NCBI GenBank assembly: GCA_964624955.1
Contig: CAZUZF010000003.1
Coordinates: forward strand, 1-36,878
Origin: an uncultured Gammaproteobacteria bacterium
Lineage (GTDB): Bacteria > Patescibacteriota > Microgenomatia > Levybacterales > UBA12049
Reading direction: 5' to 3'
Length of the DNA stretch: 36,878 nucleotides
Shown: positions 13,441 to 28,892 of the stretch, piece after piece
Layout: each line of letters opens with the position of its first letter
Numbering within the stretch: position 1 is the stretch's first letter
Translations under genes and position numbers: made by a program
The notes under the pieces: model-generated
Databases searched by the model: none
What the model saw: the letters and a program-made list of their open reading frames with translations, nothing else
What the model was told of the DNA's origin: nothing

Positions 13441-13764
13441 TTAATTATATACTGGCTCTTCCAATTCTCCAACTTGTTTTCCATTTACTGGGATTTTAAG
13501 TAAAAAAGACAGGGCATTTGCAATCGAGATTCCAACCCTAAGGCCCGTAAAAGAACCTGGGCCTTTATTTACTTTTATTTCCGATAAGTCTTTTGGTTTA
13601 AGATTTTTTTGTTTTAGGACTTTTTCTATTAATGCCAAACAGGCTTGAGATTTTAAATTCTTTGAATATACTATAATTTCTTTAATTTCTTTTTTTCCAT
13701 TAATACTTAAGCCAATTTGTATTCTTTTATTATCTGATGTGTCTATGGTTAATACATTTGCCAT
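13441..13764 (-). CDS. tsaB: TsaB (YeaZ)-like protein, N-terminal half only
   Basis: 107 aa with LTIDTSD...IGL and GPGSFTGLRVGISIANAL, which match the TsaB N-terminal ASKHA subdomain. The next gene starts 4 nt after its stop, so there is no room for the C-terminal half. Confidence 0.65.
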   Translation of the reverse strand: MANVLTIDTSDNKRIQIGLSINGKKEIKEIIVYSKNLKSQACLALIEKVLKQKNLKPKDLSEIKVNKGPGSFTGLRVGISIANALSFLLKIPVNGKQVGELEEPVYN

Positions 13765-13766
13765 AT

Positions 13767-14348
13767 CTATATCTTAATATCTAAAGCGCCGTAACGCAAA
13801 ACTTTCCAGGGCTTTTGAGTACAATCGACAACTGTGGAGGCATTTTTTAAAGTACATTTCCCGTCTAGTACCAAATCAACCGATTGAACAATATATTTAT
13901 TCAGCATATTTTTTGAGTAAGGAGTTTGTTCACCATGTATATTGGCAGAGGGAGCTAAAATGGGAACACCAACTTTCTCAATAACCTCTAATATTTGATT
14001 ATATTGGGGCATTCTTATACCAACAGTTTCTCCTCCGCCCCTCACCAGATCTGGAACTAGACTTTTATTTGCGGCTAAAACAATTGTTAATGCCCCAGGC
14101 CAATATCTACTGATTAGTTTTTCCTCAACCTCTTGTGTGTCAGCCTCCCAATATTTTTTTGCCATTTGTAAACTTGATACCAAAACAGGAGCTGCCATAT
14201 TGGTTGGTCTTTTTCTTATTTGAAATAGTCTCTCAATGGCTTTTTGGCTATCAATCCTGCAGCCAATTCCAAAAGCCGTATCGGTTGGAAAAACTATTAT
14301 TCCACCTTTATTTAGTATCTTTACCGCCCGATCAATTTTACTATTCAT
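13767..14348 (-). CDS. tsaC: L-threonylcarbamoyladenylate synthase (YrdC/Sua5 family, single domain)
   Basis: 193 aa with GGIIVFPTDTAFGIGC, RPTNMAAPVLV, PGALT and APSAN motifs. Confidence 0.85.
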   Translation of the reverse strand: MNSKIDRAVKILNKGGIIVFPTDTAFGIGCRIDSQKAIERLFQIRKRPTNMAAPVLVSSLQMAKKYWEADTQEVEEKLISRYWPGALTIVLAANKSLVPDLVRGGGETVGIRMPQYNQILEVIEKVGVPILAPSANIHGEQTPYSKNMLNKYIVQSVDLVLDGKCTLKNASTVVDCTQKPWKVLRYGALDIKI

Positions 14349-14773
14349 GATTTTTTGATTACTATTTTCCTTGTGGTTTCATTTATGTATTCAAATTGTA
14401 AATCAATTCGTTTTGAAGGCATTAAATCAAAAAGCTTTTCAGCCCATTCAATTGCAGTGATATTTTCATCATCTTTTAAAATTTCATCTATCCCAATGCC
14501 TTGCAGATCATAAATTGTTTGAATTCTATAAAGATCTATATGATAGAGGTTTAAATCGCCAATCTCATATCGCCTTGCAATTATAAAGGTTGGGGAAATT
14601 ATTCTTTGCGTAATACCAAGGCCTTTTGCAAGTCCTTGCACAAAGCTTGTTTTACCACTTCCCAAATTTCCGTAAAGGCAAAGTATGTCTCCTTTTTTGA
14701 GAGCTTTGGCAAAATCAGATGCAAATCTTTGGGTTTGTTTTAGGTTATTGGATATAATAGTTTTAGATTCCAT
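14345..14773 (-). CDS. tsaE: tRNA t6A biosynthesis ATPase TsaE (YjeE)
   Basis: 142 aa with Walker A GNLGSGKTSFVQGLAKGLG, SPTFII, HIDLYR and IEW. Confidence 0.85.
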   Translation of the reverse strand: MESKTIISNNLKQTQRFASDFAKALKKGDILCLYGNLGSGKTSFVQGLAKGLGITQRIISPTFIIARRYEIGDLNLYHIDLYRIQTIYDLQGIGIDEILKDDENITAIEWAEKLFDLMPSKRIDLQFEYINETTRKIVIKKS

Positions 14774-15653
14774 TTGTTTTTGTCTTTAAAAAGTTTCTAT
14801 ATGATAAGGCAACTACTATACCACAAAGAGAAAGAAAAAGTACTCCCAAAGATATAAAAACAACTCCAATTACATTGCTTTTTTGTTTGTTTGGAACGCT
14901 AGCTTTTGTTTGGTCTTTACTGTCACCATTTGTATTTTCTAAGCTATCATTACTTTGAGAGATACCTAAAACATTTGCTTGAACTGTTGGAGTAATAGTT
15001 GATGTAAGTGTTGGTGTTGGGGTTTTGGTAGGACTTGGAAGAGGAGTTAGTGTTGCAGTTGGTTTTGTGGTTGGGGTAGGCGTTGGAGATTTTGTTGGCG
15101 TTGGTGAATTAGTAGGTGTATTTGTAGGTTGTGGCGTTGGTGTTAAGGTAGGCGAAGGCGAGGGCGTTGGCGCATTTAAGGTAATAGTAAGAGTATTGGA
15201 GTCTCCGCTTGTAGGACTTGTGCTATTTCCAGTAAATCTTCTAAACCTTATTGTATACTGACCAGGTCCTATGTAATTTGAGTTTTCTGGATTGTTTTTG
15301 GCCTTTAGCTTTCCAAACCATGCACCTGATACTGGAATAAAATTGAATAATTTAGTTTTAATCTCTTCAGTCGAAGAGGGAGAACTAAAATAATCAACAT
15401 ATTCCCCAGAATTATTGTATGTATAACCAAAAAAATCCTTAGAATCATCTAAAACCTTAAGCTCTGCTTGTAGGTAACAACCAGAGGTTGAACAGCTAGA
15501 AATTATCAAGCCTGAAATCTCAGCATCAACTTCTATCTCATCGTTTCCCGTAATTGTAGGATTAGATATTGTAAAGGTAATTGCGGCAAAAGCAGATTTG
15601 GGAAATATGCTAGATAATAATAAAAAAGCAATTAAAAATATTATTGCTCTCAT
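14763..15653 (-). CDS. Secreted, C-terminally membrane-anchored surface protein with a Pro/Thr-rich stalk
   Basis: 296 aa. It has a signal peptide MRAIIFLIAFLLLSSIFPKSAFA/A, a beta-rich domain of about 135 aa, a PT-rich linker of about 64 aa and a C-terminal TM VIGVVFISLGVLFLSLCGIVVAL followed by basic residues. There is no LPXTG motif. Confidence 0.7.
   Translation of the reverse strand: MRAIIFLIAFLLLSSIFPKSAFAAITFTISNPTITGNDEIEVDAEISGLIISSCSTSGCYLQAELKVLDDSKDFFGYTYNNSGEYVDYFSSPSSTEEIKTKLFNFIPVSGAWFGKLKAKNNPENSNYIGPGQYTIRFRRFTGNSTSPTSGDSNTLTITLNAPTPSPSPTLTPTPQPTNTPTNSPTPTKSPTPTPTTKPTATLTPLPSPTKTPTPTLTSTITPTVQANVLGISQSNDSLENTNGDSKDQTKASVPNKQKSNVIGVVFISLGVLFLSLCGIVVALSYRNFLKTKTNGI
14982..15173 (-). 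repeat. Low-complexity coding repeat encoding (P-T/S)n, APTPSPSPTLTPTPQPTNTPTNSPTPTKSPTPTPTTKPTATLTPLPSPTKTPTPTLTSTITPT
   Basis: Imperfect ggtgttgg/ggcgttgg-type reiteration on the plus strand. It creates a spurious 78-aa G/V-rich plus-strand ORF (15025-15261). Confidence 0.85.
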
Positions 15654-15675: not shown

Positions 15676-16914
15676 TCAATTAGGTATCGTATGAAGATAC
15701 CAGGTTGTAAGTCCTCCATCGTGTATAACTTTTGCATAATAGAGCTTTCCATTCCTGCAGTTATAAGATCCGCCATATAATTTTCCAGATTTGATTGTTT
15801 TAACTGTAGCTGAAGATGAATCCATATCAATACCAGTATGCACTCCCCCTGAATAAAAGTTTTTGGCAAAACTGTGTGATCCGTAAGCTTGGTTTATTAT
15901 AATAGGCTCATTTAAAGGCCAAGGAAGCTCACCTGTTGGATTTATTGTTCCATAAACGCTATAACTATCAGGAGAGTAAGAATAGGAGAAACTCACTCCT
16001 CCCTTTAAATAATTATTTGGATCTTGGACTGATCCGTCTTTTTGTATTTCAAAATGTAAATGAGCTCCTGTAGAACAACCAGGGCTTACGCCGTATGAAG
16101 CTATTGTGCCAATAGAATCCCCTTGATTAACATCTCTCATATAAGAATCTACTCCCCCTCCAAAAACAATCGCCCTTTCAGCTTGCGCTTGCTCTAAAAG
16201 TCTTTGATATCTTGCTTCATCATTTTTTGTTACTTCAAGCAAAGCTTGCTTATTTTTTTTGTCCTGTGCAAGCTGGTTGGTATACTGTTCTAACTGAATT
16301 TTTAATGCTTCTACCTTAGCCTTTTTTTCTTCAAATATTTCTTTTTGATTTGCATAGTCTACTTTTGCCTGCTGTGTTTGGTAGATGAGTTGTTTGTCAT
16401 GAGCCTGGGCTCTTTTTAAATAATTAAGCCTTGATAAAAAATCAGAAGCATCTGAAGATGTAAGAAGAATCTGCAATGGTTGTATTGTTCCCACTTCATA
16501 GGTTGCAACCACCCTGTTAATTAAAACTTCAACCAGTTCATTTAAAGATTTTTCAAGGCCTGATATTTTTTTGGTAGCTGTATCAATGTCTAATGTGATA
16601 TCGGTTATTTGCTCCTGGGTAGACGCTATTTGATATTCAGTTAATTTTATCTGATTATCTATTACGCCAATTTGGGAAGAAAGAGTTTTTTTCTCTCCTT
16701 CTTTTTCACTTATTTTATTCTTAAGGTATTCTACGCATTGATCATTGTTTAATTTTTGTTCTGCGCATTCAGGAATGGTTGCTGCAGTTGATGATGAAGG
16801 GATGGGAGTTGGCGTTGTTTCAGCAAGAGAATAAGCGCTAGAAAAAATTAGGACCAAAAGACAAATTGAAAATATGAATAGTTTTTTTAAAAGATTCATA
16901 GAACATAAATTCAT
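15676..16914 (-). CDS. Secreted coiled-coil M23 (LytM-type) metallopeptidase, EnvC/PcsB-like position after ftsEX, with inverted catalytic-motif order
   Basis: 412 aa with a signal peptide and a heptad-rich region of about 200 aa. GCSTGAHLHFEI (HxH) lies at aa 279-290 and GGVHTGIDMD (HxxxD) at aa 356-364, and the protein ends ...WYLHTIPN. It overlaps ftsX by 4 nt. Confidence 0.8.
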   Translation of the reverse strand: MNLCSMNLLKKLFIFSICLLVLIFSSAYSLAETTPTPIPSSSTAATIPECAEQKLNNDQCVEYLKNKISEKEGEKKTLSSQIGVIDNQIKLTEYQIASTQEQITDITLDIDTATKKISGLEKSLNELVEVLINRVVATYEVGTIQPLQILLTSSDASDFLSRLNYLKRAQAHDKQLIYQTQQAKVDYANQKEIFEEKKAKVEALKIQLEQYTNQLAQDKKNKQALLEVTKNDEARYQRLLEQAQAERAIVFGGGVDSYMRDVNQGDSIGTIASYGVSPGCSTGAHLHFEIQKDGSVQDPNNYLKGGVSFSYSYSPDSYSVYGTINPTGELPWPLNEPIIINQAYGSHSFAKNFYSGGVHTGIDMDSSSATVKTIKSGKLYGGSYNCRNGKLYYAKVIHDGGLTTWYLHTIPN

Positions 16915-17777
16915 TTAAGATATCTAAGTACAGCAAGAAAGCTTGAGATAATACCAAGAAGGGTTGCCAAAAGCAGTTCAAATCCTAAAAGTATTAGAAG
17001 ATCAATGTAAGGAACTGGAATAACCGGAATACCTTTTAGGAAAGATTCTAAAAATGGAGTCGCGTATAAAAGCGTTGCGGTTGAGATTGCCCAACCAATT
17101 GCAGCACCAATAACTCCATAAAATATGCCCTCAATGATAAAAGGCCATCTTATATACCAACTCGTTGCGCCAATTAAACGCATTATTTCTATGTCTTCTT
17201 TTTTGTGCGATATTTTTATACTAATTATTGTCACCATTATAAAAATGGAAACTAAAGAAAGAAGAACTATTAACGCAATTCCAATTTTTCTAACCGCATT
17301 TGTCCAGTTAGTTAATGCTGAAACTACATCTTTTTGATAGATTACTTCAGAGACAATTGGGGATTTTTTCAAAGCGTCTGAGATTTCTCCCAAATCTTCA
17401 ATTTCTACTGCGGAAATTTCAAATGAAGCTGGCAAAACATCTGCTGTAACTAAATCAAGTAGAAGTGGGTCATCCTTATTTTGCTCCCTGTAAATATTTA
17501 AGGCGTCTTCTTTGGAAACATATTTTATTGATGCTACTTTTCCGCTTTGGGAAAGCTGATTTTCCAAAGCGTTTATATCAGCTTGGGGTGCATCATTTTT
17601 GAAAAACGCGGTAACTTGTGGTTTTGATTCAAAAAAATTAATAATTTTAGATGAGCCTACTAATAAAAAAGTAAAGAAAGATACGACCAGAAAAGTTAAT
17701 GTCATTATTAAAATTGCAGCCAATGCCTGATACGGCGATCTTCTAATGTTTCTTGCAGCTGTACTTATATATTTCAT
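16911..17777 (-). CDS. ftsX: Cell-division ABC transporter permease FtsX
   Basis: 288 aa. The N terminus is AARNIRRSPYQALAAILIMTLTFLV, followed by a large extracytoplasmic loop and 3 C-terminal TMs. It follows ftsE with a 4-nt overlap. Confidence 0.85.
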   Translation of the reverse strand: MKYISTAARNIRRSPYQALAAILIMTLTFLVVSFFTFLLVGSSKIINFFESKPQVTAFFKNDAPQADINALENQLSQSGKVASIKYVSKEDALNIYREQNKDDPLLLDLVTADVLPASFEISAVEIEDLGEISDALKKSPIVSEVIYQKDVVSALTNWTNAVRKIGIALIVLLSLVSIFIMVTIISIKISHKKEDIEIMRLIGATSWYIRWPFIIEGIFYGVIGAAIGWAISTATLLYATPFLESFLKGIPVIPVPYIDLLILLGFELLLATLLGIISSFLAVLRYLK

Positions 17778-18589
17778 TGTTTTTCCTCCCTTTCTTTATC
17801 ATCTTTTTCTTGCTCTTTGTTACTGTGCTGAGGCTTATGGGATTTTTCTTGGGCTTGCTGTGTATCCTCTGTTTTCTCTTGTTTTTCTTCTTCTTGCTTT
17901 TCTTCATGCTTTTTGCCCTCATGGTGGCCTCTTTCTTCTTTAACAATCTTTCCTTTATCCAAATGAACAACTCTTTTATTCATGCTTTTTACAATATCAG
18001 TGTTGTGTGTTGCCATAATAACCGTTGTTCCCACTTTATTTATATCCGATAAAAGCTTTACTATTTCCCATGAGGTCGCAAGGTCCAAATTGCCTGTTGG
18101 CTCATCAGCAAGTAGAATTTCCGGGGAAAGAACAAGAGCTCTTGCAATTGCGGTTCTTTGCAACTCTCCTCCTGAAAGCTGAATGGGAAACTTATCCCGA
18201 TGCTCTAAAAGACCAACTTGTCTAAGAACTTCTTCAACTCTAACTAACGCATTTTTTGCATTTTCTCCGGAAACCTCTAAAGGAAGCACTACATTTTCAA
18301 AAATAGTTCTGTCTGCCAAAAGTTTTAGGTCCTGAAAAACTACCCCTATCTTTTTCCGAAAAGAAGAGAGTTTTCCTTTGGGAAGCTTTGCAACATCGAA
18401 TTCGTTGACAAAGATAGTCCCTTCTGTTGACAAAGTATCTCTTATTAAAAGCCTAAAAAGTGTAGTTTTACCAGATCCTGTTGGACCAACTAAAAAAAGA
18501 AATTCTCCTTTATCAACTAATAGAGAAACATCTGAAAGACCAAGAGTTCCTGTTGCAAATTTTTTGGATACTTTATCTAGTTTTATCAT
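17774..18589 (-). CDS. ftsE: Cell-division ATP-binding protein FtsE with a ~50-aa Lys/Glu-rich C-terminal tail
   Basis: 271 aa with Walker A GPTGSGKTT, signature LSGGELQR and Walker B LLADEPTGNLD. The ABC core ends near aa 217 and is followed by EERGHHEGKKHEEKQEEEKQEK... Confidence 0.88.
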   Translation of the reverse strand: MIKLDKVSKKFATGTLGLSDVSLLVDKGEFLFLVGPTGSGKTTLFRLLIRDTLSTEGTIFVNEFDVAKLPKGKLSSFRKKIGVVFQDLKLLADRTIFENVVLPLEVSGENAKNALVRVEEVLRQVGLLEHRDKFPIQLSGGELQRTAIARALVLSPEILLADEPTGNLDLATSWEIVKLLSDINKVGTTVIMATHNTDIVKSMNKRVVHLDKGKIVKEERGHHEGKKHEEKQEEEKQEKTEDTQQAQEKSHKPQHSNKEQEKDDKEREEKQ

Positions 18590-19062
18590 TACAAAACCTC
18601 AACTCTTCCTACGTCCATAAGCCAGCCAGCGTGTTGAGCTTTTTGCGTTTCTCCCCAGACCTTTATTTTTCTGGCTACAAACTTTGAAAGATCTACGATT
18701 GATGAAGTAAGATAAACGTTTTGGCTCTCTCCGCCCGGTCTTTCAAGATGAAAAGCGCCTTCACCTTCTATTCCGCCTTCTTTTAAAGTTCCCTCGACAA
18801 CATCCTTAAAAGTCTTTGTATCATCAGAGCCAACTACTGTTCCTTTGGGCGCTTCGGATAAATTCAAGATTCCACCAGTTTGCGAAGTTGCATTCTTTCC
18901 GCCTGTTGACGAAAGGAAAAAGCCGGTGAGTATTCCAACAACTACTACCAGGGTTAAAGCAACAATAATTTTAGGAGAATATTTTGATTTGAAACTTTCC
19001 TTATCGAAATTTTTGATTAAAGGCTGCTCTTGCGTTTTTTGATCTAATTGTTCTTTTTCCAT
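18589..19062 (-). CDS. N-terminally anchored extracytoplasmic protein, unknown function
   Basis: 157 aa with a single TM IIVALTLVVVVGILTGFFL followed by a ~100-aa soluble domain. Its stop overlaps the ftsE start by 1 nt. Confidence 0.55.
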   Translation of the reverse strand: MEKEQLDQKTQEQPLIKNFDKESFKSKYSPKIIVALTLVVVVGILTGFFLSSTGGKNATSQTGGILNLSEAPKGTVVGSDDTKTFKDVVEGTLKEGGIEGEGAFHLERPGGESQNVYLTSSIVDLSKFVARKIKVWGETQKAQHAGWLMDVGRVEVL

Positions 19063-22640: not shown

Positions 22641-22939
22641 ATACGTTTGATAAGGTCTACGATCTTGTGGCATCAGTTCCAAAAGGCAAGGTTACAACTT
22701 ACGGGGCAATTGCAAAACTTTTATCCATCGATCCAAGGGTAGTAGGATTTGCTTTGCATGCAAATTCCGACTCGCAAACTATTCCCTGTCATAGAGTTAT
22801 TAACTCAAAGGGAGAAATCTCTAGTGGCTATGCCTTTGGGGGAGCCCATATTCAAAAACAAATGCTTGGAAAAGAAGGAATAAAATTTAATGTAGAAAAC
22901 AAAGTAGACCTTAAAAAATACGGTTATTTATTATCCTGA
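22637..22939 (+). CDS. MGMT-family protein (O6-alkylguanine-DNA alkyltransferase C-terminal DNA-binding domain only, active-site Cys retained)
   Basis: About 100 aa with VPKGKVTTYGAIA and the IPCHRVI (PCHR) active-site motif. I place the start at MNTFDK, which overlaps the uppP stop by 4 nt (ATGA). Confidence 0.75.
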   Translation: MNTFDKVYDLVASVPKGKVTTYGAIAKLLSIDPRVVGFALHANSDSQTIPCHRVINSKGEISSGYAFGGAHIQKQMLGKEGIKFNVENKVDLKKYGYLLS

Positions 22940-23262
22940 CTTTTAGTTTCTTTTATATCTTCCAATAACTCTTTTGCAATTTTATCTATTTCGTTTTTAA
23001 GCTTATTCTCTATATCCCAAACCTTCTCTTTAAGATGAGATAAGGTTTTATCATGGTTTTCCAATGATAAATTTTTTAAAAATATTTTTTTATCTTCAGG
23101 GGTTAACTGATCTAATACCTTGGAAACAACTGCCGTATGTATATTTGCCTCAACCAAGGATAATAAATGAACTCTTTCCTTAGATTTTACATCAAGTTCT
23201 GCTATTTCCAAAGTTATATGCGTGGTCTCAACCAAATGTGAATAAAAATGTTTTTTTGCCAT
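22924..23262 (-). CDS. Hypothetical helical protein
   Basis: 112-aa ORF that is charged and helix-prone, with no recognisable motifs. Its 3' end overlaps the convergent MGMT gene by 16 nt. Confidence 0.45.
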   Translation of the reverse strand: MAKKHFYSHLVETTHITLEIAELDVKSKERVHLLSLVEANIHTAVVSKVLDQLTPEDKKIFLKNLSLENHDKTLSHLKEKVWDIENKLKNEIDKIAKELLEDIKETKSQDNK

Positions 23263-23286
23263 AATTTTATTAATCTTTATTTTATA

Positions 23287-24153
23287 TTATAAACTAACAG
23301 GTCCCAAAGGTATCTTATTTTCCGGATCATCTACAAAAAAATACAGTACAGGTCCTCTTTGTGAGCCGTCTACTCTTTCTAGATATCTCATCACTTCAGG
23401 AGAGCCACCCAATTGCTTACCTGTCCAGGAAGCAGGACCAGAGTCTGCAATTACGGCTACTATTGCTTTTCCATTGTTGGGATTTACCAAAAGCATCTTT
23501 CTGTACTTAAAAAAATCCATAAATTCTTTTACATTTTCATTAAAACCAGGGGATAAAAAGGTTTGAACCGCTATGTAATATTTTTCTCTTAAATTATCCT
23601 CTACTGTCATTTCATTCCTTGAATTGGCAAAGTATCTAAAAGCACCAAGCCCTGGCGCCATTCCATAACTTCCATATTCCATAGCTTCCTGGGGGCTTTC
23701 AAAATGAGCGTACATACTGTCTCCTGGAAATCTTGCTAAATGCTGCTCTTGACCTATAATTCCATATTGGGTGTTAAGCCTTTTGCCTAACAATTCTCCT
23801 TTCACCCCAATGCCAAAAGTCCTGGATAATACTTCTGTTACTTTTACCTCCTCATCCAAAGTTAATGGCCTTACATCAGCAGGCAATACGTTTTTTAAAT
23901 CGTAAATAAGAAAAACTCTTTTATCTACAGGTTCTTGTTGAGAAGCGTTTGCAGAAAATGAAGCAGGAATTTGAGGAATGATTGGGTTAGTAAGAAGATA
24001 TAGGCCTGCTATTGAACCAACCGCCAGCTGCTTTGAATTGTTCTCAAGCCAGTCAAAAGCTTCTTTGTGTTTTTCAAAAATTTCCTTTTGTAAATCCTTA
24101 TGTTTCTGTGTCCACTTTTTTAAAAGCTTTTGATAATGAATACTTTTACTCAT
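23287..24153 (-). CDS. Membrane-anchored extracytoplasmic protein with a C-terminal RlpA/expansin-like (double-psi beta-barrel) signature
   Basis: 288 aa with a TM LAVGSIAGLYLLTNPII. The C-terminal segment KMLLVNPNNGKAIVAVIADSGPASWTGKQLGGSPEVMRYL resembles the V.N..NGksv.V.v.DrGP...iDLS core of DPBB lytic-transglycosylase-like domains. The family assignment is tentative. Confidence 0.5.
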   Translation of the reverse strand: MSKSIHYQKLLKKWTQKHKDLQKEIFEKHKEAFDWLENNSKQLAVGSIAGLYLLTNPIIPQIPASFSANASQQEPVDKRVFLIYDLKNVLPADVRPLTLDEEVKVTEVLSRTFGIGVKGELLGKRLNTQYGIIGQEQHLARFPGDSMYAHFESPQEAMEYGSYGMAPGLGAFRYFANSRNEMTVEDNLREKYYIAVQTFLSPGFNENVKEFMDFFKYRKMLLVNPNNGKAIVAVIADSGPASWTGKQLGGSPEVMRYLERVDGSQRGPVLYFFVDDPENKIPLGPVSL

Positions 24154-24178
24154 GCATATAAATCATAGCAAATTTAAG

Positions 24179-25912
24179 CTAATCAACAAAACCATAAACA
24201 AAAGTATCACCAAATTTCTCTTTTAAAACAAGTCCTTCATTCTTGTTTAAATTTGATAAAACATAATTTCCATCTCCTAAAAGATAATATTTATTCTTAT
24301 AAAGGCTGTCATATTGATCTTTATTAACAACTATAAAATCAACCTCCATTGCCTTAATTTTATTAATAGACTCTGCTCTTGGAAAATTATTAAATAGATA
24401 TAAAACATCCTTTTGCCATTGTTGAGGTGAAAAACCGCTATATCCATTTACAGTTTTTCTAAAGCTTTTTGTGTAAAAATACTCCCTTTCAAGTTCTATA
24501 GCTGAATTTGGGGAATTCCAGTTAAAGATAGGCATAAAAATAAAGACTGAATTTTTTGGTGTAGCATCTATCCACTCATAAACTTTTGGAAACTCACTTA
24601 TGGATAAAACCTTATAAAATTTCATTGGGAAATTATATTCCGCTACAATTCCTAAAATTAAAACTAAATAGATAAGAAAAGCCTTTCTAAAGTTTTTTAA
24701 AATTATGGGTAAAATTAAAGCAATTAAAACAGCAAGGCAAAATATAAAAAGAATTTCCCATCTTGCAGAATTTCTAAAACCGGAAAAGCCAGGGATAATG
24801 TAATAAAAAAGCGCGTAGGGCAAAATAACGGGAAAAGGAGAATGAATAGTTTGTCTTGCAAAATGAAGTGCAGGACCAAAACTTAAGATTAAACCTAAAA
24901 GTCCTGTTGTTAAAAAGCTTTTTTGTAAAATATTGCCTTTCCTAAATCTTTTAATGCAGTAAAAAATTACAAAAAGGGAAAGAACGCTAAACACCAAACC
25001 AATATATCCCGTCTTTATTTCATCTGTCCTTGTATATTTTTGAGTATTGGATATGCTCATAAGCAAAGGTTGAAAGATCGTGTGCTCATTTGGGTAAATT
25101 AAGTCCTCAGGCTGAAGAGCAAAGTGAATTGCATCTCTTATATCCCGTTTTGCGTTATATTCTCTGTTTACATCCAGGTATGGTTTAATTATTGGTATAA
25201 CTAAAAGTATTGAAAATAAAACTATTAATATATTATTTCTTGTAAATATTTTCTTTATTGTCTTTCTATCTCTAAGCCAAAGAAAGAAAAGGTAAATGGA
25301 ATAAAAAAAGATTAAAAAGTAAGCCGGTAAAAAACTATTGTAGATTTGTAAAAGAAAAAAAAGCAAAGACAAGAAAAGATAACGGGATTTAAAGGTTTTT
25401 GTAAAATAAATAAAAAATAAAATAGATATTGGGATCCATTGAATTGAAAGAATTTGAATATGGGTTTTTTTATCCAACAATACAGGTGAGAAAATAAGTA
25501 AAAGTCCTGAGATCAAAGATGCCCAAAAATTTTTGGTTAAGTAAAAAGCAAGAACAAAGGTAAAGAATCCAACCATAAAGATTGAAGAAAGCAGGGTAAA
25601 ATTAACTATTGCAATTGGTTCCTTAAATAAAACCAATGGTATTATTCCCAAAACACTTGAAGTAATAAAAGTTTCCGAATAAGCAATTGGATTTAAGTAA
25701 GGATAATAAATAGAGCCTTCAAAAATACCTAATGGATTTGTAAAAAGTGAGTGAACCACCCAGTTCATTACGTAAGCTTCCAAATATTGGTCACCAAAAC
25801 CTGTTATGAATTTTCCTAAGTTAAAAATAAGAGGATATGTAATATAAACAGCACTTATTAAAAAAATAAGAAAGGCCAAAAAATATTTGATAAATTTATC
25901 TTTAAAAAGCAT
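24179..25912 (-). CDS. Large polytopic membrane protein, GT-C-like putative glycosyltransferase with a C-terminal extracytoplasmic domain
   Basis: 577 aa with about 12-13 TMs. It has an acidic/aromatic first loop (GFGDQYLEAYVMNW) and a soluble C terminus of about 150 aa. The architecture parallels the 744-2333 protein, but the sequence differs. Confidence 0.5.
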   Translation of the reverse strand: MLFKDKFIKYFLAFLIFLISAVYITYPLIFNLGKFITGFGDQYLEAYVMNWVVHSLFTNPLGIFEGSIYYPYLNPIAYSETFITSSVLGIIPLVLFKEPIAIVNFTLLSSIFMVGFFTFVLAFYLTKNFWASLISGLLLIFSPVLLDKKTHIQILSIQWIPISILFFIYFTKTFKSRYLFLSLLFFLLQIYNSFLPAYFLIFFYSIYLFFLWLRDRKTIKKIFTRNNILIVLFSILLVIPIIKPYLDVNREYNAKRDIRDAIHFALQPEDLIYPNEHTIFQPLLMSISNTQKYTRTDEIKTGYIGLVFSVLSLFVIFYCIKRFRKGNILQKSFLTTGLLGLILSFGPALHFARQTIHSPFPVILPYALFYYIIPGFSGFRNSARWEILFIFCLAVLIALILPIILKNFRKAFLIYLVLILGIVAEYNFPMKFYKVLSISEFPKVYEWIDATPKNSVFIFMPIFNWNSPNSAIELEREYFYTKSFRKTVNGYSGFSPQQWQKDVLYLFNNFPRAESINKIKAMEVDFIVVNKDQYDSLYKNKYYLLGDGNYVLSNLNKNEGLVLKEKFGDTFVYGFVD

Positions 25913-25919
25913 TAAGACT

Positions 25920-26999
25920 TTAAATAAATTCTTCTAAAGCTTTAATTAGTCTTTTAACGTCTTCTATTGTATGTGAAGGAAAATTACCAATACGAATATG
26001 TTTATCCTTATTTTCTCCATAGCCTCTACCTACAAATATGCCAATTTTGTTTAAAAAGCTGATTACATCCTTAGATGATCCTTTTGTTTTTGCAACAATT
26101 GTAGTTTGTGAGCGAACATTTGTATCTCCTACAAGTGGTTCAAAATATGAGTTGTTATCTAAAAATTCATAAATAATTTTTGCTTTTCGTACAGTTTCCT
26201 TTCTAATCTTACTAATCCCGTATGAAAGCATATCTTTTAAGACTTTATTTAACAGATAAATTGCCAAAACATTTGGCGTTTCAGGAGTCTCTGCTTTTTT
26301 AGAATAAGATAAAAGGGTTGGAAAATTGTGATACGTACCAATATCTTTTTTAAGTTTTAAAAGTTTTTGGGCTTTCTCTAATGCTTTTGGACTCACAACT
26401 ATTATACCAAGTCCTGAAGGCAGACCAAAGCCTTTTTGAACCGAGAAAAATACCAAATCAAGATATTTGTAATTTAAATTTCCAAAAGGAACTGCGGAAA
26501 CACTATCAACCGCTATAAGCAAATTTTTATTTTTAATCTCATAAACTTTTTCCATTGGAAAGTAAATTCCGCCACTTGTGTCATTTTCTGTAGCACACAA
26601 AAGCTCATAATTGGATAAGTTAAGATTTTTTAATTTATCACTATCTATTCTTTCTCCAAAGTTAGCCTTCAGGCTTTCTGCCTTTTTACCCAGGCCTTTT
26701 GCAATATTAAAAAATTTATCACCAAATGCTCCTGTTATTAAATGAAAACTTTTTTGATCCACACAATTATTTATAGATAATTCCATCCCCTCAGTTCCTG
26801 AGGAAATGAAAAAGACATTGTAGCTTGATGGAATTTTTAGAAGTTTTTTAAGTAATCCTACATTTTCAGAAAACATTTGATGGAATAAATCACCTCTGTG
26901 AGAAATGGATAAAATGTTATTGGTAATTCCATTTTTTAAATGTTTTGCTACCGTAGGATAATTTTGGGAAGGGCCAACTGTAAAAAAGACTTTTTTCAT
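25920..26999 (-). CDS. serC: Phosphoserine aminotransferase
   Basis: 359 aa with FTVGPS, ISHRGDLF, SGTEGME and SVQKGFGLPSGLG (PLP lysine). The ATG directly follows the serB-serA stop. Confidence 0.8.
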   Translation of the reverse strand: MKKVFFTVGPSQNYPTVAKHLKNGITNNILSISHRGDLFHQMFSENVGLLKKLLKIPSSYNVFFISSGTEGMELSINNCVDQKSFHLITGAFGDKFFNIAKGLGKKAESLKANFGERIDSDKLKNLNLSNYELLCATENDTSGGIYFPMEKVYEIKNKNLLIAVDSVSAVPFGNLNYKYLDLVFFSVQKGFGLPSGLGIIVVSPKALEKAQKLLKLKKDIGTYHNFPTLLSYSKKAETPETPNVLAIYLLNKVLKDMLSYGISKIRKETVRKAKIIYEFLDNNSYFEPLVGDTNVRSQTTIVAKTKGSSKDVISFLNKIGIFVGRGYGENKDKHIRIGNFPSHTIEDVKRLIKALEEFI

Positions 27000-28892
27000 T
27001 TAATATAATATTCTTAATTTTATTGTTTCTTCTATATTTTTAAGCTTAATTTGTAAATCATCCGAATATTTTTTGTTAATATCTGTAATTACACACCCAA
27101 TTATATCATTTGTGCCTAAGATTTGATTCTCAATATTTGCACCGCTCTCAAAAAGAGCAGTATTAATTTTTGCAAGGACTCCAGGAACGTTTTTATGGAT
27201 ATGGATGAGTCTATGAATTTTTTGCATTTGAGAAAGATTAAGATTCGGAAAGTTAACAGATAGAGTAGTATTCCCAATATCTACAAAATCCATAAGCTTC
27301 TTACTAACAAACTCTCCAATGTCTTCTTGTGCTTCTTCCGTGCTTCCTCCGATGTGAGGAGTAAGAATAACATTTGGTAAGTTTCTAAGCAGTGATGTAA
27401 ATTTCTCTCCATTCCCGTTTGGCTCATTTGGAAAGACATCAACAGCCGTACCCTTAATTTTTCCATTAACAATATATTTACGTAAGGCTTGAATATCCAC
27501 TATAAAGCCCCTGCTTAGATTTAAGAATATGACTCCGTCTTTCATTTTTTTGAACTCTTTTTCACCTATTAAGTTGACATTAGATTTTCTTCCATCAACA
27601 TGTATTGTTATAACATCAGAGAGCTGTAAAAGCTTGGGAAGAGTTTGGCATTTTTTTACGTTTCCAATCGCCAATCTTTCAACTATGTCATAAAAATAAA
27701 CCTCCATGCCTAAACTTTGGGCAATAACCCCAAGTTGCGTGCCGATATTTCCGTAACCCACTATTCCCAAATGTTTTCCTCTAACTTCATGGCTTCCTCT
27801 TGCAGATTTATCCCAAATTCCAAGATGCAATTTATTATTTTTGTCAATTACGTTTCTATAAAGAACTATTATTTCCGCAATCGTAAGCTCGACTACGCTT
27901 TTGGTATTACTGTAAGGAGCATTAAAAACAACTATTCCTTTTTTTGTACATTCCAAAAGGTCGATCCTGTCAGTCCCTATACAAAATGCGCCTATGGCAA
28001 TTAGTTTCGGAGCATTTTCCAAAACTTTTTTGGAAATGGCGGTTTTTGATCTGACACCAAGTATTGAGACGTCTTTGATTTTTTCTATGAGACTTTCTTC
28101 ATCCAAAGCATTTTCTAAAAGTTCGGCATCGTATCCCTGATCTTCAAATTTTCTTGCTGCAGATTTATCAATATTTTCAGTTAATAAAACCTTCATCTTG
28201 CTTTTTGGATAAGACAGAGCCCTTGGGAGATTTAGGGAAAACAAAAACTCATCAAAACTATGAACTATTAAATCTGCTTTTTTAACTACGCTTTCTCTTT
28301 TTACATTCTCACAAAAGGCGACAAATTTTACGCTTTTGTTTAGCTTCTTTATTTCAAAATCCGTATATCCATCTCCTAAAACAAACACATTTCCTTCTAA
28401 ATGTAATGATTTTACGACTCTTGCCTTACCGTTTTCTTGAGAGAGAATATTTTTCTTGTCAAATCCCAAAACCTTATTGTTTTTACAAATAAAACTATTA
28501 GAAAGAATATGGTTTTCTAAAATACCAAACTTTTTAACAACAGGATAAATATATTCCTTAAATCCTCCGGAGATAATATAGATATTATCACTATGTTTTT
28601 TGAAAAAATCTTTATTCCTTTTAATAGAAGGCGTAATTTTTGTTTTAAGATGTTTTATTAGTTTATCTATATCCTCCTTTTTTATTGGGAGAAGAGATAA
28701 TCTTTTTGATAAAGACTCTGAAAACTTTATCTTTCCTTCCATGCCTAAAGCTGTAGTTTTCTTAATTTCCTTCGTAATTTCATCTTTATCGAGATTTTCT
28801 TTAAGAACAATCTCTGAAAGTTCGTCAATTGCTTCCACCTTTATAAAAGTGCTGTCAAAATCAATTATGTAATAGTTTTTCATTTTTACCAT
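27000..28892 (-). CDS. serA: Bifunctional fusion of phosphoserine phosphatase (HAD, SerB-type) and D-3-phosphoglycerate dehydrogenase (E. coli-type SerA with ACT domain)
   Basis: 630 aa. Residues 1-~230 carry IIDFDSTFI (DxDxT), ISGGF and GDGYTD. Residues ~233-630 are collinear with E. coli SerA (GAFCIGTDRIDL, GIVGYGNIGTQLG, TPHIGGSTEEAQ, HRLIHIHKNVPGVLAKIN, ...KLRILY). Confidence 0.88.
   Translation of the reverse strand: MVKMKNYYIIDFDSTFIKVEAIDELSEIVLKENLDKDEITKEIKKTTALGMEGKIKFSESLSKRLSLLPIKKEDIDKLIKHLKTKITPSIKRNKDFFKKHSDNIYIISGGFKEYIYPVVKKFGILENHILSNSFICKNNKVLGFDKKNILSQENGKARVVKSLHLEGNVFVLGDGYTDFEIKKLNKSVKFVAFCENVKRESVVKKADLIVHSFDEFLFSLNLPRALSYPKSKMKVLLTENIDKSAARKFEDQGYDAELLENALDEESLIEKIKDVSILGVRSKTAISKKVLENAPKLIAIGAFCIGTDRIDLLECTKKGIVVFNAPYSNTKSVVELTIAEIIVLYRNVIDKNNKLHLGIWDKSARGSHEVRGKHLGIVGYGNIGTQLGVIAQSLGMEVYFYDIVERLAIGNVKKCQTLPKLLQLSDVITIHVDGRKSNVNLIGEKEFKKMKDGVIFLNLSRGFIVDIQALRKYIVNGKIKGTAVDVFPNEPNGNGEKFTSLLRNLPNVILTPHIGGSTEEAQEDIGEFVSKKLMDFVDIGNTTLSVNFPNLNLSQMQKIHRLIHIHKNVPGVLAKINTALFESGANIENQILGTNDIIGCVITDINKKYSDDLQIKLKNIEETIKLRILY

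Follow-up and report, generated by a model that had tools for sequence, protein, structure and literature searches.

Sequence evidence for a circularly permuted M23/LytM domain in a putative FtsEX-associated cell-wall hydrolase of the Candidate Phyla Radiation

A swapped M23 domain encoded downstream of ftsEX

Directly downstream of ftsE and ftsX, the contig CAZUZF010000003.1 (assembly GCA_964624955.1; its 36,878 nucleotides are referred to as the window, and all features described below lie on its minus strand) encodes a coiled-coil protein of 412 amino acids (15676..16914, stop codon included), whose sequence points to export and whose C-terminal M23 domain is, at the level of the sequence, a clean circular permutation: the HxH motif (His-285 at 16060-16062, His-287 at 16054-16056) comes first and is followed, beyond a connector, by the HxxxD motif (His-359 at 15838-15840, Asp-363 at 15826-15828) and the additional catalytic histidine (His-408 at 15691-15693). 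With a probability of about 0.8, we interpret the gene product as an FtsEX-associated wall hydrolase of a Levybacteria-like member of the Candidate Phyla Radiation (CPR), i.e. a naturally permuted M23/LytM zinc metallopeptidase that would have originated from tandem domains and would be docked on FtsX by its coiled coil.

The domain consists of two segments and the stretch that joins them. Segment A (residues 255-303; 16006..16152) corresponds to the canonical C-terminal third of M23 (positions 62-96 of the 96-position Pfam model; 96-138 of the lysostaphin chain) and comprises a V.QGDSIG strand, the HxH motif and a terminal DPNNYL. The conserved, S/Y-rich connector of about 25 residues (304-329; 15928..16005), modeled as a short strand and a helix with predicted local distance difference test (pLDDT) values of 96-98, bridges the two termini of the canonical domain. 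Segment B (residues 330-412; 15679..15927) represents the canonical N-terminal two-thirds (Pfam model 2-51 of 96; lysostaphin chain 28-84), in which the WP motif and HxxxD are followed by a beta-hairpin and by the His-408-bearing strand WYLH; the protein terminates four residues later (...WYLHTIPN, followed by TGA at 15678..15676).

The Pfam profile Peptidase_M23 (PF01551) recognized the protein with 35.4 bits (gathering cut-off 28.7), and the match was split: residues 261-299 aligned to model positions 62-96, and the C-terminal 85 residues, when searched alone, to positions 2-51. The same exchange was seen when the last 163 residues were aligned to lysostaphin (4qp5_A), where positions 105-160 of this fragment matched chain positions 28-84 (GGMHYGVD...WYMH) and positions 18-56 matched 96-138 (HLHF motif). 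His-359 and Asp-363 are thus aligned with the lysostaphin HYGVD, His-285 and His-287 with HLHF, and His-408 with WYMH; all M23 motifs are present, and it is their linear order, canonically HxxxD, histidine, HxH, that deviates. When residues 329-412 were joined in silico to residues 258-305, the resulting de-permuted construct gave a single unbroken match over model positions 2-96 of 96 with 44.3 bits, near the sum of the partial scores. A preliminary description of this DNA, made from the sequence without database searches, had given the reading frame, the residue positions of His-285, His-359, Asp-363 and His-408, the nucleotide positions of His-285 and His-359 and the stop four residues past WYLH, all of which agree with our data; it had also proposed the inverted motif order and foreseen two partial Peptidase_M23 matches with swapped model coordinates, exactly as observed.

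A family profile (A3; 151 positions), derived from an alignment of 42 diverse domains of the permuted type, gave the same picture on a broader basis. Searched against the Protein Data Bank (PDB), it matched 43 M23 chains (best E = 2e-18), and the order was swapped wherever both halves matched; a collinear match to a solved PDB chain was not obtained with this profile. In 9gy1_A, for example, profile positions 94-150 fell on chain positions 38-92 and positions 3-49 on 98-142, so that the end and the start of the profile abut within 5 residues of the canonical domain. When 15 canonical M23 domains were doubled, all 15 yielded a single collinear match that ran across the junction (profile positions 2-150 of 151; 69-98 bits, near the total of both partial scores); as single copies, the same 15 domains each gave two swapped partial matches. 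Taken together, both pieces make up exactly one domain without overlap, with a break of 4-6 residues located between the strand of the catalytic histidine and the next strand. The swapped order is confirmed far beyond chance, and the suggestion of the preliminary description that the domain is complete but permuted, and not truncated, is borne out by the de-permuted and doubled constructs.

Conservation and predicted structure of the permuted domain

In an alignment of 60 sequences, His-285, His-287, His-359, Asp-363 and His-408 were invariant, and every protein ended 2-4 residues past WYLH; in a wider alignment of 42 sequences, the first four were again invariant and His-408 was conserved to at least 90%. 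The metal ligands and catalytic histidines that had been postulated are retained, invariantly or nearly so, in the family. Among 267 unique permuted domains, His-408 was present in 264, Trp-332 in 264, Pro-333 in 267 and Gln-342 in 266, none of these four positions having played a part in the selection of the domains. By analogy to lysostaphin and LytM, His-359, Asp-363 and His-287 would act as zinc ligands, and His-285 and His-408 as catalytic residues.

Each segment additionally contains one conserved cysteine (Cys-280 at 16075..16077; Cys-386 at 15757..15759): both were found in 263 of the 267 domains, both were missing in two, which are short-linker variants, and only one was present in a further two. 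Since the pair varies too little for any real covariation to be detected, it is at most suggestive of a contact between the segments, which may be stapled together by a Cys-280/Cys-386 disulfide.

In the AlphaFold2 (AF2) model of residues 249-412 alone, computed with the alignment of the full protein, the mean pLDDT amounted to 93.4 and the predicted template modeling score (pTM) to 0.89; the prediction that both swapped segments and the connector make up a single compact domain is therefore regarded as confident. A common zinc site of His-287, His-359 and Asp-363 is presumed by comparison with the canonical enzymes.

Three structural results set limits to the proposed interpretation. The domain-only model found no M23 chain when compared with the PDB by Foldseek (best E = 0.17), and against the BFVD viral library it gave one marginal match (E = 5.5e-4, TMq 0.44), the latter search also returning a cyanophage internal virion protein. 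Because Foldseek aligns sequentially and a permutation puts such an aligner at a disadvantage, the lack of an M23 match is partly expected; both searches are regarded as uninformative in either direction and lend the interpretation no support. Furthermore, the full-length AF2 model reached a pTM of only 0.44: the C-terminal beta-rich domain was well defined (pLDDT approximately 90-97), whereas the Gly-rich linker between coiled coil and domain (residues 247-253) remained below a pLDDT of 50, and in consequence the mechanism of coupling is left unconstrained by the model.

Distribution of the permuted domain and its relatives

A word-indexed search retrieved 1060 homologs, the top 120 of which all have a length of approximately 390-420 amino acids; the few named organisms among these 120 are metagenome-assembled genomes (MAGs) of Levybacteria or Patescibacteria, and the source names seen comprised four entries "hypothetical protein", several "CwlO-like" and one "peptidoglycan DD-metalloendopeptidase family protein". 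An exhaustive HMMER search with residues 249-412 against 1.84 billion cluster representatives (50% identity) resulted in 658 matches, 84 of them below 1e-10. Among the best 150 representatives, about 100 were matched collinearly over a single stretch. When these 150 were classified by motif order, 79 showed HxH before HxxxD and a C-terminus 51-60 residues past HxxxD, 35 were canonical (end at least 97 residues past HxxxD) and about 10 were tandem M23-M23 proteins; the others were mostly fragments or cases missed by the regular expression.

According to a search with one conserved peptide pattern, at least 256 of 185,579 GTDB species genomes encode a relative, a number that is a lower bound. 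The loci of 80 of the 256 were retrieved and examined: the permuted order was present in 80 of 80 and the canonical order in none, which answers, for these loci, the question of the order in homologs that the preliminary description had raised. With 256 genomes detected, the permutation would be shared by hundreds of species of CPR/Patescibacteria, which are ultra-small bacteria. The lineages named in the record titles are Levy-, Curtiss-, Gottesman-, Woese-, Pace-, Roizman- and Daviesbacteria as well as "Patescibacteria group". About 38 of the 80 loci (L001, L005, L006, L008 ... L080), together with L030, bear the titles "uncultured Gammaproteobacteria", "Pseudomonadales" or, in one case, "Vitreimonas sp."; these oddly titled loci retain the CPR-type order of prfB, ftsEX and the permuted M23 gene, the GC content across the 80 loci ranges from 0.31 to 0.51, and the titles probably belong to mislabeled third-party MAG records.

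The connector varies in length from about 6 to 30 residues across the permuted family. Three variants (P0236, P0256 and P0272; the first two named EnvC by JGI, the third unnamed) combine a connector of 6-8 residues with a more canonical-looking "GYG...idHggG" hairpin and lack the cysteine pair; they either branched off early or arose by a permutation of their own. The domain of P0236, used as query, found only one collinear relative, a fragment of 147 residues. The shortness of these connectors suggests that the termini of the canonical M23 domain are near each other in space.

Permuted M23 modules were also observed near the C-terminus of giant proteins that are devoid of an EnvC-like coiled coil, i.e. 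P0177 (1256 residues) and P0253 (2174 residues), and likewise near the C-terminus of P0207 (894 residues) and its cluster-mate P0271 (2492 residues); one giant-protein cluster with a permuted M23 is annotated as a member of the endonuclease/exonuclease/phosphatase family. Given its presence in giant proteins without coiled coil, the permuted domain behaves as a mobile module. Tandem canonical M23 proteins with two to three copies are represented by P0198, P0215, P0217, P0219, P0221, P0222, P0225, P0231, P0250 and P0257. Their succession of C-terminal half, linker and N-terminal half is collinear with the permuted domain and has a similar inter-motif spacing; such proteins are plausible models of a duplication intermediate.

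Protein architecture and gene neighborhood

The hydrophobic N-terminus (residues 1 to approximately 30; 16825..16914; MNLCSMNLLKKLFIFSICLLVLIFSSAYSLA), modeled as a helix over residues 6-25, would serve as signal peptide or membrane anchor. A conserved cysteine pair (Cys-50/Cys-60, near 16735..16767) is located right after it. The following antiparallel coiled-coil hairpin (residues 57-250; 16165..16746; turn at about residues 140-155) is supported by AF2, Pfam and Foldseek: the predicted helices span residues 57-139, 146-152 and 156-250, approximately 190 residues overall, and the Pfam model CC_PcsB matched residues 117-185 with 26.4 bits, marginally below its cut-off of 27. By Foldseek, the full-length model retrieved from the PDB, via the coiled coil, EnvC in FtsEX complexes (8tzl_E, 6tpi_A), RipA/RipC (6ewy, 8idd_E, 8idc_E) and PcsB (4cgk); as this comparison is dominated by the coiled coil, it informs about the likeness to EnvC, RipC and PcsB and not about the catalytic domain. 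The protein thus shares with the FtsEX-coupled class a long antiparallel coiled coil ahead of the catalytic domain, preceded by a putative export signal. The end of the last helix, just N-terminal to the M23 domain (residues 226-248; T.NDE..YQ.LL..A.AE), was highly conserved in the 60-sequence alignment; one might speculate that it serves in autoinhibition or coupling.

Upstream of the M23 gene are located ftsX (16911..17777), coding for a permease with an extracellular domain (Pfam FtsX_ECD, 3e-19; FtsX, 2.3e-14), and ftsE (17774..18589), coding for an ATP-binding cassette (ABC) ATPase (Pfam ABC_tran, 1.1e-32). The coordinates of ftsE and ftsX overlap by 4 nucleotides, which suggests translational coupling, and the FtsX extracellular domain is the expected docking site of the coiled coil. 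The position directly after ftsE-ftsX had been pointed out before and was recovered here; of the proposed 4-nucleotide overlap between ftsX and the M23 gene, the shared ATGA (16914..16911) is indeed present, but the overlap hinges on the start codon chosen, because codon 6 is a second in-frame ATG at which several homologs begin. The tight linkage of the genes is unaffected by this choice. In tblastn searches with the window proteins, the order prfB, 157-residue open reading frame (ORF), ftsE, ftsX, permuted M23 was found in 74 of the 80 related loci; four of the six exceptions are contig ends, and two loci (L043, L048) have no ftsEX within 4.3 kb upstream.

The ORF of 157 residues between prfB and ftsE (18589..19062), which has no Pfam match, possesses an N-terminal hydrophobic segment, and most of the 80 loci contain a tblastn relative at the equivalent place; the ORF possibly shares the operon with ftsE, ftsX and the M23 gene and may be a CPR-specific FtsEX partner. 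FtsE comprises 271 residues, and its ABC ATPase domain ends at about residue 165-220; the Lys/Glu/Gln-rich C-terminal tail of approximately 50 residues (...EERGHHEGKKHEEKQEEEKQEK...; 17774..~17930) is unusual. The region directly downstream of the M23 gene (14763..15653) encodes a protein of 296 residues without Pfam match, in which a signal peptide and a C-terminal membrane anchor accompany a long tract rich in Pro, Thr and Ser; about 17 of the related loci harbor relatives of it at a downstream position.

The remaining window is of housekeeping character (genes for dTDP-rhamnose and nucleotide-sugar metabolism, glycosyltransferases, UppP, SecA, seryl-tRNA synthetase and t6A genes). The t6A cluster (13441..14773) consists of TsaE, Sua5/TsaC and an ORF of 107 residues that matches the first part only of the TsaD/TsaB family model, as a truncated TsaB-like protein. 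At 25920..28892, a fusion protein of 630 residues with haloacid dehalogenase (HAD) phosphatase-like, D-2-hydroxyacid dehydrogenase and ACT domains is encoded beside a class-V aminotransferase, which resembles a SerB-SerA fusion accompanied by SerC in a compact serine pathway. For three consecutive ORFs at 22924..25912 (112, 288 and 577 residues), Pfam gave no match at E <= 1e-5.

Proposed function and alternative explanations

Most likely, the protein is a catalytically active endopeptidase of peptidoglycan that is regulated by FtsEX and whose M23 fold is permuted. The polypeptide chain would enter the domain at the strand ahead of the HxH motif and run to the canonical C-terminus, cross the connector to the canonical N-terminus at the WP motif, continue through HxxxD and the beta-hairpin and end just past the strand of the catalytic histidine. 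Segments A and B would thereby fold as one domain with one zinc site (His-359, Asp-363, His-287) and with His-285 and His-408 as catalytic residues. As the likely origin of this arrangement, we infer the tandem duplication of an M23 domain and the subsequent loss of the outer halves. By analogy to EnvC, PcsB, CwlO and RipC, the tip of the coiled-coil hairpin would dock on the extracellular domain of FtsX, and ATP hydrolysis by FtsE would relieve an autoinhibition, with the result that peptidoglycan cross-links (peptide bridges) are cut at the septum or division site.

It is conceivable, if doubtful, that the permutation is not neutral but an adaptation that rewires the control by FtsEX. The termini would then lie at the break next to the catalytic-histidine strand and no longer at the rear of the domain, with the coiled coil attached next to the active-site groove and the strand of His-408 as the free C-terminal end; this change would let the coiled coil gate the catalytic site, as its FtsE-driven motion would directly assemble or disassemble the site without displacement of a separate inhibitory element. 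If true, a large part of the CPR would share a way of gating hydrolases that is new.

It seems unlikely to us that the protein with its permuted domain acts in the manner of EnvC, without catalysis of its own, as a scaffold or activator by which a separate amidase or hydrolase is switched on. The overall architecture and the gene position do match EnvC, and the NCBIfam EnvC model gave a weak match over the coiled coil (25.8 bits versus a cut-off of 270). However, LytM domains of the EnvC type are devoid of metal ligands, whereas in the present family all five residues for metal binding and catalysis are kept without exception or nearly so, down to approximately 30% identity; moreover, the window ORFs that were scanned yielded neither an amidase nor another wall hydrolase, although 37 kb are a small sample. 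Because the active site is intact, a direct hydrolase following the logic of PcsB, CwlO and RipC, but with an M23 engine, is favored over an EnvC-type activator.

A domain-swapped dimer, in which segment A of one protomer and segment B of another complement each other in trans along the coiled coil, is considerably less probable. PcsB-type coiled-coil hydrolases dimerize, and swapping would be compatible with the prediction for the monomer; yet the conserved connector was modeled with confidence within a monomeric domain of high pTM, the connectors of P0236 and P0256 span merely 6-8 residues, and in P0177 and P0253 the permuted module terminates unrelated giant proteins without any coiled coil.

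A reading without functional meaning (chance motifs, an artifact of frameshift or assembly, or what is left of two M23 domains after decay) has a negligible probability and is effectively refuted by conservation: although the segments probably derive historically from two tandem copies, the arrangement and its catalytic residues persist in all of the examined species genomes, and the pieces add up to exactly one domain. In view of conservation, the completeness of the pieces and the significance of the matches, we rejected truncation or degeneration of the domain, an assembly artifact, chance motifs and two independent remnants, the last being the alternative by which the preliminary description would have been overturned and which the alignments contradict.

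Comparison with known systems

By homology, the domain belongs to the M23 family, whose profile and motifs are all recovered from it in a non-canonical order. It has HxxxD, the catalytic histidine, HxH and flanking sequence in common with the canonical enzymes (lysostaphin 4QP5, LytM 2B0P, ShyA, Csd3); both halves are significantly homologous to these, but their order is swapped, the old termini are joined by the connector and the new termini lie between the catalytic-histidine strand and the next strand. The WP...Q motif and the Cys-280/Cys-386 pair are invariants specific to the permuted family. No relevant report of a permuted M23, LytM or EnvC was encountered in the full-text literature searched, subscription-only literature being outside its scope, and the word "permut" is absent from a 2022 review of M23; in this respect, too, the preliminary description, which knew of no permuted M23 fold, agrees with our results.

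The protein is not a new category of system. In the NlpC/P60 peptidoglycan-hydrolase superfamily, natural circular permutation has swapped the order of catalytic residues in the permuted families (YaeF/poxvirus G6R, LRAT-like; PMC6403190); these differ in fold and chemistry (papain-like Cys-His) and serve as an analogy only. The HABAS/barrel-sandwich-hybrid fold class, among whose members PMC11515920 counts peptidase M23, is reported there to comprise three topologies that are related by circular permutation across families; there, the permutations separate unrelated families (NusG, RNA polymerase insertions), and a permuted M23 peptidase is not described in that work. For protein evolution, the family would be a natural experiment on where the M23 fold tolerates new termini, with the likely tandem-domain precursors still observable, and it could be useful for the engineering of lysostaphin-like enzybiotics; it is thus of interest to both communities as well as to that of CPR cell division. 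M23/LytM proteins (lysostaphin, LytM, EnvC, ShyA) are among the most studied cell-wall enzymes, and the permuted form matches the standard profiles only in part; a dedicated model would correct the annotation of hundreds of CPR genomes.

Among the FtsEX partners, EnvC of E. coli and V. cholerae (6TPI, 8TZL) shares with the present protein the export (predicted here), the link to FtsEX, the long antiparallel coiled coil and a C-terminal domain of the M23/LytM family. The LytM domain of EnvC has the canonical order and is catalytically degenerate with its metal ligands lost, whereas the domain described here is permuted and has kept all catalytic residues; the EnvC chains of the PDB are matched by the A3 profile over the HxH-side segment only. 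Because the ligands are retained and the EnvC profile score stays far below its cut-off, the protein is not an EnvC sensu stricto. PcsB of S. pneumoniae, CwlO of B. subtilis and RipC of M. tuberculosis likewise combine a coiled coil with a competent C-terminal hydrolase under the control of FtsEX, but catalysis in them is carried out by a cysteine peptidase domain of the CHAP or NlpC/P60 type instead of by a zinc-dependent M23 domain. CPR bacteria would accordingly pair FtsEX with an M23 domain, as does the Gram-negative EnvC, and with an intact active site, as do the Gram-positive PcsB, CwlO and RipC, which offers a testable model of wall splitting in minimal cells.

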